64,000 bases of DNA from Alphaproteobacteria bacterium (GTDB taxonomy: Bacteria; Pseudomonadota; Alphaproteobacteria; CALKHQ01): NCBI GenBank assembly GCA_965227515.1, contig CBDDFZ010000001.1, forward strand, positions 1,312,001 to 1,376,000. Direction: 5' to 3'. Below, one piece after another: positions 38,058 to 39,508 of the stretch (position 1 is the first letter of the stretch; the number at the start of each line of letters is the position of its first letter). The notes under the pieces were generated by a model. The model searched no databases, was not told the DNA's origin, and saw only the letters and a program-made list of their open reading frames with translations. The translations under genes were made by a program, and so were the position numbers.

Positions 38058-38261
38058 CGTGGCATTGGGTCTTGTGGGCCGAAACGTCGATTCTCTGGGC
38101 GCTCGCGATGCAACCAATACGTTTGTCACCCTTGACCGGCGCACCGACAAGGCGTGGCGCGTCGAGGGTCCATTTCGGTCCAATCCGCCTCAGCAAAGTC
38201 AATCGGCCTTCGCTATTGCCGGCAATTTTCAGCCCCGGCTCAGCGATGGATTGCATGTTTG

Positions 38262-38418
38262 TTTTCTCCCTTCTTGGTAGGGAGGGGACGCCGACGGGCA
38301 CTCCGAGTAATGGATTGGTCTATGCGACCGTGAGGATCTCGGACCCGCCGGCGTCGCGGTCGTACACGCGAACGGAAGTATGGGCTTTTCGCCCGCATGC
38401 AATCCGGCGTGCAGACCA
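38262..38418 (+). ncRNA. Putative IS110 bridge RNA (boundaries approximate)
   Basis: 5' hairpin, then two stem/internal-loop/hairpin units whose loop strands match the target (AATGGAT, TGAGGATC) and the donor junction (ACGGAAG, CATGCAATC). Confidence 0.8.
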
Positions 38419-38443
38419 GATGCTGACTATGACGGAGGTGATA

Positions 38444-39388
38444 TTGTCCGACAAGCTCTACATTGGTGTGGACGTCTCGAAGGGTTGGCTCGACATCGTC
38501 ATCGACGGTGAGGGGTCGGCCGTGCGGATTGATAATGCGCCGGCCGCGATCGAGACCTGGCTGGCGACACTGGTGCCGGCGCGCATCGGGCTGGTGGCGT
38601 TCGAGCCCACTGGCGGTTATGAGCACGTGCTGCGGCGCTGCCTGGCCGAGGCCGGGCTGCCGTTCGCGCAAGTGCATCCCAACGAGGTTGTCGCCTATCG
38701 CCGCCAGCGTGGGGTGCGGGCCAAGACCGACCGCATCGACGCGCGCCTGCTGGCCGACTTCGCTGCCAACGAACTCGCCCGTCGCGGGCTCGGCGCCATG
38801 GTCGAGGGCGATCCGGCGCTGCGCGAGATGGTGGCGCGTCGGCGCCAGCTCGTCGATCTGCTGCAGGCCGAGCGTTGCCGCCAGGAGCATGCCGACGGCG
38901 CTGTCGTGCGCGACAGCCTGGAAGCCACCATCGCTCTCCTGCGCCAGTCCATCGCCCAGATCGAACACGCCATCGACCAGCACATTGCAGGCGATCGGGC
39001 GCTCAGCCAACGTGCCGCCAACCTGAGAACGCTTAAAGGGGCCGGCCCGATCACCGTCTACACCCTGCTCGGCGAACTGCCTGAACTTGGACGCCTGGGG
39101 CCAAAGCAGATCGCAGCCCTCGTCGGTCTCGCCCCGCAAACCCGCCAGAGCGGCAAACATACCTACCACGCCACCACCGGACACGGCCGGCCCGGCGTGC
39201 GACGGGTGCTGTTCAACGGCGCAAGATGCGCCATCGCCCACAACCCCGTCCTGCGCGACTTCTACCAACGCCTCACCACCGAATACGCCAAGCCACCAAA
39301 GGTCGCCCTCGTCGCCGTCATGCGAAAAATGCTCGTCATCCTCAACGCAATCGCCCGAGACAACAAACCCTGGAAACACGCCGCTTGA
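38444..39388 (+). CDS. IS110-family DEDD recombinase (TTG start after GGAGGTGA)
   Basis: [39 protein letters not shown]. Confidence 0.95.
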
Positions 39389-39508
39389 CACCAAACACGG
39401 AAGATCCTCGGCACCTCGCCCCGCTCCGGGGCTCGGGCCAAGGATGACAAAAGAGATGTGGGCGTCTGTCATCGTCGCCCCGTTATTGCAGCGAGCGCCG
39501 GCCCTAGT

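Follow-up and report, generated by a model that had tools for sequence, protein, structure and literature searches.

The insertion sequence and its boundaries

The DNA analysed here is a stretch of 64,000 nucleotides (referred to below as the window) from the genome of an alphaproteobacterium (assembly GCA_965227515.1, contig CBDDFZ010000001.1, positions 1,312,001 to 1,376,000 of the forward strand). The genome comprises two contigs and two replicons, 5.52 Mb in all, and has a G+C content of 66.6%. Positions 38252–39403 of the window hold, on the plus strand, an insertion sequence (IS) of the IS110 group, which is 1152 bp long and has a copy of the core dinucleotide AT on each side. It encodes a recombinase, and its long left end very probably specifies a bridge RNA of the kind described for IS621. 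An earlier note, made from the letters of the window, had proposed such an RNA, with target and donor guides that can be read directly and are programmed against a host repeat resembling repetitive extragenic palindromic (REP) sequences.

The left junction reads GATGG (38245–38249), AT (38250–38251), TGCATG (38252–38257), and the right junction CACGGAAG (39396–39403), AT (39404–39405), CCTCG (39406–39410). The seven bases preceding the left core (38243–38249) constitute the left target arm, whose last four bases, ATGG, are matched together with the core by the left target guide described below. The left end is 168–192 nt long, whereas the right end comprises only the 15 nt after the stop codon (39389–39403), a difference in length characteristic of the IS110 group.

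A second copy of the element is located at C1:1792746–1793897. It is 98% identical to the copy in the window, its ends are the same, and the two copies are collinear over exactly 1152 bases, beyond which only the target sequence is common to both. The junctions of copy 1 are GCGATGG-AT[IS]AT-CCTCGGCAC and those of copy 2 GGAATGG-AT[IS]AT-CCTCGGCGC; the right flank of copy 2 begins with CCTCGGC, and the site shared by both insertions is ATGG-AT-CCTCGGC. Looking for other genomic copies, a check that the earlier note had recommended, thus found the element again in the same site. The element was present in none of 17 plasmid records that gave short matches (5–15% coverage).

Contigs of four public runs (X1, X3, X4 and X6) were compared with positions 37600–40100 of the window. 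One contig in X3 and one in X4, from related strains, contain the empty site. They join position 38248 to 39403 and skip 1154 bases (1152 + 2), with three letters at the joint that fit either side; the sides of the joint are 111 and 59 letters long and both reach unique sequence. This exact joint fixes the element as 38252–39403 plus one copy of AT. The two copies and the empty site agree in showing site-specific insertion with the same dinucleotide AT on both sides and no longer duplication. In a further X3 contig the element's left end follows another flank, one ending in AATGG-AT. The contigs of X1 have the arrangement of the window without differences, and this run may come from the source strain. 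The strains are polymorphic for the presence of the element. Variants found in the four runs were mostly those of copy 2. Two joints in X1 with short sides (20 and 23 letters) were set aside as cross-matches between repeats.

The recombinase gene

The recombinase gene (38444–39388, plus strand) encodes a DEDD, RuvC-like domain and a Tnp domain with a catalytic serine. The protein has 314 amino acids if translation starts at TTG 38444, and 322 if it starts at ATG 38420. The actual start is probably the TTG, because the homologues begin with MxDKxFIGVD and a Shine-Dalgarno sequence, GGAGG, is located at 38434–38438, where it is conserved at the 3′ end of the alignment of orthologue left ends. 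With this start the non-coding left end would be about 192 nt long. Residue numbers given here count from ATG 38420.

Both Pfam matches were above the cut-offs (PF01548, 3.7e-13; PF02371, 1.2e-17). Full-length matches were obtained with two recombinases of solved structure, ISCro4 (9t56, 8.3e-24; query residues 13–318 aligned with 9–319) and IS621 (8wt6, 5.4e-23). Residues D18, E62, D104, D107 and S244 are invariant in 32 sequences, the query and 31 homologues of 60–71% identity, and in the alignment they face the DEDD and Ser positions of ISCro4. Of 8000 candidates scored, at least 7849 were relatives with E ≤ 0.001, the closest of which has 71% identity.

Predicted fold of the probable bridge RNA

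RNAfold gave a minimum free energy of −78.7 kcal/mol for positions 38252–38425, against −64.1 ± 4.0 for shuffled sequences (z = −3.62), and none of 200 shuffles was as low. The fold consists of a 5′ hairpin followed by two stem-loops with internal loops, one for the target and one for the donor. The 5′ stem-loop (38265–38285) has 7 bp. In the target-binding module (38287–38355) an outer stem is formed by 38287–38298 with 38344–38355, and an inner stem by TCCGAG (38302–38307) with CTCGGA (38338–38343). Inside the loop a small hairpin, GGTC/GACC (38317–38329, within 38316–38330), is 98.3% paired in the orthologues. The donor-binding module (38358–38417) has an outer GGUC/GACC pairing and a stem of CACGC (38365–38369) with GCGUG (38407–38411), and encloses a GGGC/GCCC hairpin (38382–38394) seen both by RNAfold and in the pairing of orthologues.

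Orthologues were taken from a scan of one genome per species, which yielded 79 loci. We used the 38 in which the match started by query residue 15 and reached at least residue 315; the other 41 were mostly partial matches or had about 30–40% identity. The upstream regions of the orthologues align with the left end in the window throughout. Stem pairing was counted in an alignment of 29 of the 34 distinct left ends; the five left out (L027, L028, L031, L044 and L045) are near-duplicates or carry a large insertion. In this alignment RNAalifold placed two spurious pairs across the left target guide and, because of gaps, missed the inner stem of the target loop, both of which were corrected by hand before the count.

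The fold is conserved. Across the 29 orthologues 94.8% of the stem cells were paired, compared with 30–46% when the partners were slid, and 13 pairs had changed on both sides, compared with 3.7 ± 1.3 in shuffles, none of which (0/500) reached 13. The outer stem of the target loop was 99.4% paired with compensatory changes in 8 of its 11 pairs, and the stem of the donor loop 100% paired with such changes in two pairs. A 5′ hairpin of at least 5 bp was found in 27 of the 29 left ends, with 26 distinct arm sequences and a mean z of −1.54 relative to shuffles. The two-loop layout has been described for 103 left ends of IS110 elements, likewise the strand rule by which the top strand is matched in sense by the 5′ side of each loop and complemented by the 3′ side (Durrant et al., PMC11208160).

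Guide segments and their covariation with flanking DNA

The left target guide (LTG), AAUGGAU (38309–38315), has the same sense as the top strand of the left target arm plus the core, and would pair with the bottom strand. On the other side of the loop lies the string TGAGGATC (38331–38338), which contains the right target guide (RTG, 38331–38337). Its GAGGAU (38332–38337) complements the core plus CCTC, whereas U38331 stands opposite the G at +5, either as a wobble pair or as a conserved loop base. In the donor loop the left donor guide (LDG), ACGGAAG (38372–38378), is identical to the last seven bases of the right end. The right donor guide (RDG), CAUGCAAU (38396–38403), is the complement of the core AT plus TGCATG of the left end, and is part of the string CATGCAATC (38396–38404). 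The core is included in the LTG, RTG and RDG pairings, and the LDG 7-mer is followed here by UAU, bases that vary among the orthologues.

Handshake guides are dinucleotides located just 3′ of the RTG and the RDG, which after top-strand exchange pair with positions 6–7 of the partner DNA (Hiraizumi et al., PMC11208158). In the element CU (38338–38339) complements donor positions 6–7 (AG; true of 26/27 orthologues), and CC (38404–38405) complements target positions 6–7 (GG; 27/27 orthologues). Donor and target differ at position 6 only. A handshake role of these two dinucleotides would be consistent with the published guides. Because CC complements the target GG, ten bases of the RDG region match the integrated left junction, as against nine for the joined ends.

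All strings quoted in the earlier note were found where it had placed them, and the strand polarity of the four guide segments as well as their position in the long left end are those of IS621. The extents that it had drawn need a correction: C38338 and C38404, which it had counted with the guides and stems, belong to the handshake-like CU and CC.

If the loops are guides, they should change with the DNA beside the element. We compared them with the flanks in 27 non-redundant rows of 39. Nine rows had been dropped for a short flank or for lack of a right end (L022, L023, L026, L027, L033, L035, L036, L042 and L044), and three as duplicates (L028, L031 and L054). The LTG matched the element's own left flank plus core at 203 of 243 positions (permuted mean 161.5, sd 4.7), and the RTG matched the own right flank at 104 of 108 (permuted mean 66.5, sd 4.5); for neither guide did any of 10000 permutations reach the observed count. 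The result held for the 23 rows with unique guides (LTG 174/207, RTG 88/92). Orthologues with different loops sit in correspondingly different sites. The loop string also stands beside the element as GACTGGAT in L013, TCGTGGAT in L017 and CTATGGGT in L053, and the four bases after the core, which are mirrored in the loop, are variously CCTC, GCCC, TCCC, GGCC, CGCC, CCCC, ACCC and GGTC.

In the donor loop the LDG 7-mer was identical to the terminus of the right end in 34 of 37 orthologues, with five different 7-mers, the right end having been located without the guide. The RDG columns are nearly invariant because the terminus of the left end is nearly invariant; some orthologues have a 1-nt insertion within the RDG. 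The search for right ends within 120 nt of the end of the open reading frame (ORF) missed 11 of 39 rows. Nine of these have right ends of 127–267 nt (L025, L030, L031, L029, L017, L024, L028, L014 and L021), and in L027 and L044 no right end was found. Right ends of 104–267 nt, instead of 15–45 nt, occur in L014, L017, L021, L024, L025, L028–L031 and L013, where the extra sequence lies between the stop codon and the −35 hexamer and donor terminus.

In eight orthologues (L021, L023, L024, L028, L029, L038, L043 and L054) the left junction is GT with an LTG ending in GU, and the right junction is AT with AU in the RTG. Such junctions suggest that a GT target core has recombined in nature with an AT donor core; the target core would be retained on the left and the donor core on the right, with G-U pairing tolerated at the first core base. 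The first core base is reported to be less conserved than the invariant T (Hiraizumi et al., PMC11208158).

These data bear on whether the four matches could be a chance similarity in a GC-rich untranslated region. The matches are indeed short (6–8 nt), and single 6-mers arise in 3–6% of shuffles: when the left end was dinucleotide-shuffled 20000 times, 589 of the shuffled sequences contained ATGGAT, 1142 GAGGAT and 264 ACGGAAG. CATGCAAT, by contrast, occurred in only 5, and two or more of the guide strings came together in 57. The strings also stand in the order, polarity and internal-loop positions that guides should have, and the same columns track the flanks and ends in the 27 orthologues. 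Covariation of the guides with the flanks, identity of the LDG with the right end and covariation of the stems effectively exclude chance.

A different view would limit the left end to a role as DNA or as a structured 5′ untranslated region (UTR), through protein-binding subterminal repeats or translational control of the transposase, and without RNA guides. The donor-loop strings do repeat the element's own ends, as subterminal repeats would. There are no long terminal inverted repeats, and a subterminal inverted repeat of 6 bp (39392–39397 with 38256–38261) flanks the donor site; its 3-bp core (ACA/TGT here) can pair in 17 of 28 orthologues, among which four different complementary pairs occur. 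Short repeats of this type have been reported for the IS110 group, and the 6-bp repeat here matches them (Durrant et al., PMC11208160). Binding sites in the element's own DNA do not, however, account for target-loop strings that match sequence beyond the element's ends and vary with the host. The polarity is as published, with top-strand sense on the 5′ side of the loops and the complement of that strand on the 3′ side; the stems keep pairing by compensatory changes; and the homologous IS621 and ISCro4 proteins have been solved in complex with such RNAs. We consider an element without RNA guides very improbable.

The target repeat

The sites occupied by the two copies belong to a repeat of the genome. 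The 11-mer ATGGATCCTCG occurs 69 times (2.0 expected), and the 10-mer ATGGATCCTC 73 times, compared with 5.9 expected from composition. Downstream of the 10-mer, 68 of the 73 sites have the closing arm of a palindrome with a GGATGAC-like end; 39 of these hairpins are short and 29 longer. Twenty of the 29 long-hairpin sites have an inverted copy upstream, as do both insertions, and over all repeat sites the number is 21 of 73. In the window the right target arm CCTC (39406–39409) and the rest of the palindromic unit extend over 39406–39450 and end in AAGGATGACAA. A degenerate inverted copy lies upstream of the insertion on the minus strand (38123–38175), a paired arrangement found likewise at copy 2. 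The element is inserted at the 5′ foot of the palindrome, so that the right target arm is part of the stem. Both occupied sites are of the ...CCTCGGC subtype, of which there are 11 unoccupied copies. Orthologue targets in other hosts have the same shape, e.g. AT-GGCCGGGTCAAG.

With these counts the REP-like target named in the earlier note holds good, as do its other central claims: the two-loop layout and the IS110 recombinase are borne out by the fold, the covarying stems and the protein matches given above, and the target guides proved readable in that they covary with the flanks of the orthologues.

The genome has two matches to the Y1-transposase family (PF01797), and neither locus holds TGGATCCTC. 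No link of the repeat to a REP-associated tyrosine transposase (RAYT) was found, no PF01797 locus adjoining it. As no RAYT gene stands beside the repeat, 'REP-like' is the right term.

There are 27 matches to the IS110 DEDD domain in the genome (e.g. C1:85253–85675, C1:998480–998917 and C2:1183216–1183638), and they belong to three lineages: the element studied here with 2 copies, a family of about 1.15 kb with 4 copies and a family of about 1.45 kb with 21 copies. Each of the two latter families sits in a palindromic repeat of its own, different from the others. The idea that the 21-copy lineage shares the repeat of the element was rejected, its ends lying in a different palindrome. This family, too, has an outward TTGAC near its right end.

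A putative promoter at the circle junction and the proposed mechanism

An outward −35 hexamer, TTGACA (39385–39390), overlaps the stop codon of the recombinase gene, and nearly all orthologues have TTGAC equally far from their right end. In the left end CATGTT (38254–38259) resembles a weak −10 hexamer; CATnnT is conserved in the left ends of orthologues. Only joined ends bring the two hexamers together, separated by a spacer of 17 nt. In the integrated context the promoter scan found no sigma-70-like site, and the place of the −35 hexamer reads AGCCCC. The joined ends may form a circle-junction promoter, which would agree with the published model of expression from the circle.

We propose that the long left end encodes a bridge RNA of about 150–155 nt, roughly from 38264 to 38417, made up of the 5′ hairpin, the loop that binds the target and the one that binds the donor. 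Held by this RNA, the DEDD/Ser recombinase would exchange strands at the AT core between the circular form of the element and ATGG-AT-CCTC, which forms the 5′ foot of the palindromic, REP-like repeat of the host. Circularization would place the right-end TTGACA 17 nt upstream of the left-end CATGTT, and the pair could serve as promoter for the RNA and probably for the gene.

Weighing the evidence

On this evidence we put the probability that the locus holds a genuine IS621-type, RNA-guided IS110 element at about 0.88. Our confidence that the element is active today is lower.

Several observations weigh against the assignment. The inner stem of the target loop was only 75.4% paired in the column-based count, a low value partly caused by alignment gaps. 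A scan of positions 37900–39700 with Rfam 15 (E ≤ 1) gave no plus-strand match, and Rfam may hold no bridge-RNA model. Contiguous matching by the LTG extends over only 6 bases at copy 1 and 7 at copy 2. The LDG does not run on into the core, whereas Durrant et al. describe the core in each of the four pairings. The handshake-like CU and CC never vary in the family and hence offer no covariation. The −10 hexamer CATGTT matches 3 of 6 consensus positions and would fail the rule of the promoter scan used; transcription of the bridge RNA, and its ends, are features that we infer from the DNA. No circle junction (back-joint) was present in the contigs of X1, X3, X4 and X6, and a search of 40 other genomes, 3 from the same family and the others from the same class, gave no hit to the element at E ≤ 1e-50. 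Finally, 71 unoccupied sites fit both guides (ATGGATCCTC followed by A or G), as against two insertions; activity may be low, or further determinants may be needed.

Some of these points would fit a genuine IS110 element with a bridge-RNA gene that has by now lost all or almost all of its activity in this strain and persists as a resident relic. The few insertions among so many guide-compatible sites, the missing circle junction and the lack of a promoter-like site in the integrated context speak in its favour, and so does the divergence of the copies, which differ at 26 of 1152 positions and are not recent duplicates. Of the differences, however, only one falls in the 168 positions of the left end and none in the 15 of the right end, the other 25 being in the 969 of the longest ORF. 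Thirteen codons have synonymous and nine non-synonymous differences, and neither ORF is disrupted or has lost a catalytic residue. Two related strains have an empty site at this locus, and in X3 the element occupies another site, so that it has moved in the recent history of the species. Weak expression of the bridge RNA from integrated IS621 and inefficient excision are reported as normal (PMC13626964). For these reasons we regard a relic as unlikely, though less so than an element without guides, and prefer an RNA-guided element that may still be working.

Other features of the locus

The element lies in an intergenic region between convergent genes and interrupts no ORF. The right neighbour is a 519-aa ORF on the minus strand (39509–41068), into which the empty-site contigs of the related strains run. 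To the left, a GC-rich hairpin followed by a run of T (38030–38056) comes just after a gene for the ATPase of an ABC transporter (36918–38003); it is absent from the list of the terminator scan. The hairpin looks like the terminator of the ATPase gene and would shield the element from read-through.

The sole Rfam match was to sX15 (RF02234), a Xanthomonas small RNA, on the minus strand at 38282–38427 (21.5 bits, E = 0.85, gathering score 55). This weak alignment runs from end to end, on the strand opposite to that of the bridge RNA. sX15 and its antisense partner asX7 are plasmid-borne, and sX15 has 10 homologues in Stenotrophomonas maltophilia (Schmidtke et al. 2011, PMC3300014). As a lead only, the sX15/asX7 locus may be the left end of an IS110 element.

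Relation to known systems

The bridge-RNA mechanism of IS110 elements was first described in 2024 for IS621 of Escherichia coli, which has a 177-nt bridge RNA (PMC11208160, PMC11208158). The element in the window resembles IS621 in its DEDD/Ser recombinase with the same two domains and a full-length match, and in an RNA (here predicted) from the long left end with a 5′ hairpin and target and donor loops. In both, the bottom strand is the partner of a loop's 5′ side and the top strand that of its 3′ side, the RTG extends 4 nt beyond the core, the second core base is T and the target is of the REP type. Like IS621, the element has a −35 hexamer in the right end, with a putative −10 hexamer in the left end, and candidate dinucleotides in the handshake position. 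The two differ in that the proteins share too little for similarity at the DNA level, and the core is AT here and CT in IS621. The LTG has 7 nt (up to 9–10 nt in orthologues) as against 9 nt, and the LDG here stops before the core. The RDG is a contiguous 8-mer, whereas that of IS621 pairs discontiguously with two flipped-out U, and the right end here has only 15 nt.

ISCro4/IS622 of Citrobacter rodentium (PDB 9t56) is the best match among solved structures, with the catalytic D, E, D, D and S aligned. It has a CT core, an enterobacterial host and activity in human cells (Perry et al. 2025), whereas the element described here is known from sequence alone. Targeting of REPs by IS110 elements has long been known (references in PMC11208160). 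ISPpu9 and ISPpu10 of Pseudomonas putida are IS110-family elements that insert in REPs or in a conserved intergenic stem-loop (PMC12288879; 10.64898/2026.03.19.712850), and as here the target adjoins a stem-loop. In ISPpu10 the stem-loop is a GC-rich 5′ extension of the target; here the palindrome is 3′ of the core and includes the right target arm. The IS1111 group, with its bridge or seek RNA in the right end, shares the recombinase family and the RNA-guided logic. Its elements have short left and long right ends and subterminal inverted repeats of 7–17 bp, whereas in the element here the left end is the longer one and the inverted repeat is short (6 bp, and 3 bp across the family).

One can go further and imagine a distinct working variant of the bridge system in this alphaproteobacterial lineage. 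It would be marked by a natural (A/G)T core, an LDG that ends before the core, a contiguous 8-mer RDG and fixed handshake dinucleotides, and by a target loop rewritten from host to host after the host's own palindromic repeat (CCTC here; GGCC, GCCC, CCCC, TCCC and CGCC elsewhere). The hairpin of the repeat, directly 3′ of the core, might act as a second, structural gate, and this would account for the occupation of only 2 among more than 70 matching sites. That all these features and the gate hold together is a tentative idea, and we think it rather doubtful; if true, the lineage would offer programming rules different from those of IS621.

What we describe is an AT-core, REP-directed orthologue of a known mechanism and no new kind of system. 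To call it a possible new programmable orthologue, as the earlier note did, seems fair. It would not be an unusual one, because covariance models predict bridge RNAs in 85.7% of IS110-group elements, and in IS621 the first core base has been reprogrammed (Durrant et al., PMC11208160); 72 orthologues from the database of Durrant et al. have been screened (Perry et al. 2025, preprint).

This element leaves current ideas on the working of IS110 elements unchanged. It illustrates that the target and donor code of a bridge RNA can be read from raw sequence and verified by comparison, here with the second copy, the empty site and the covariation of guides and flanks. It adds a compact, apparently intact AT-core orthologue of 1152 bp, from a lineage with less than 72% protein identity to the rest of the collection searched. 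The alignment of the family records how one lineage has been retargeted to host-specific repeats, and may be of interest for the mining of orthologues for genome editing.

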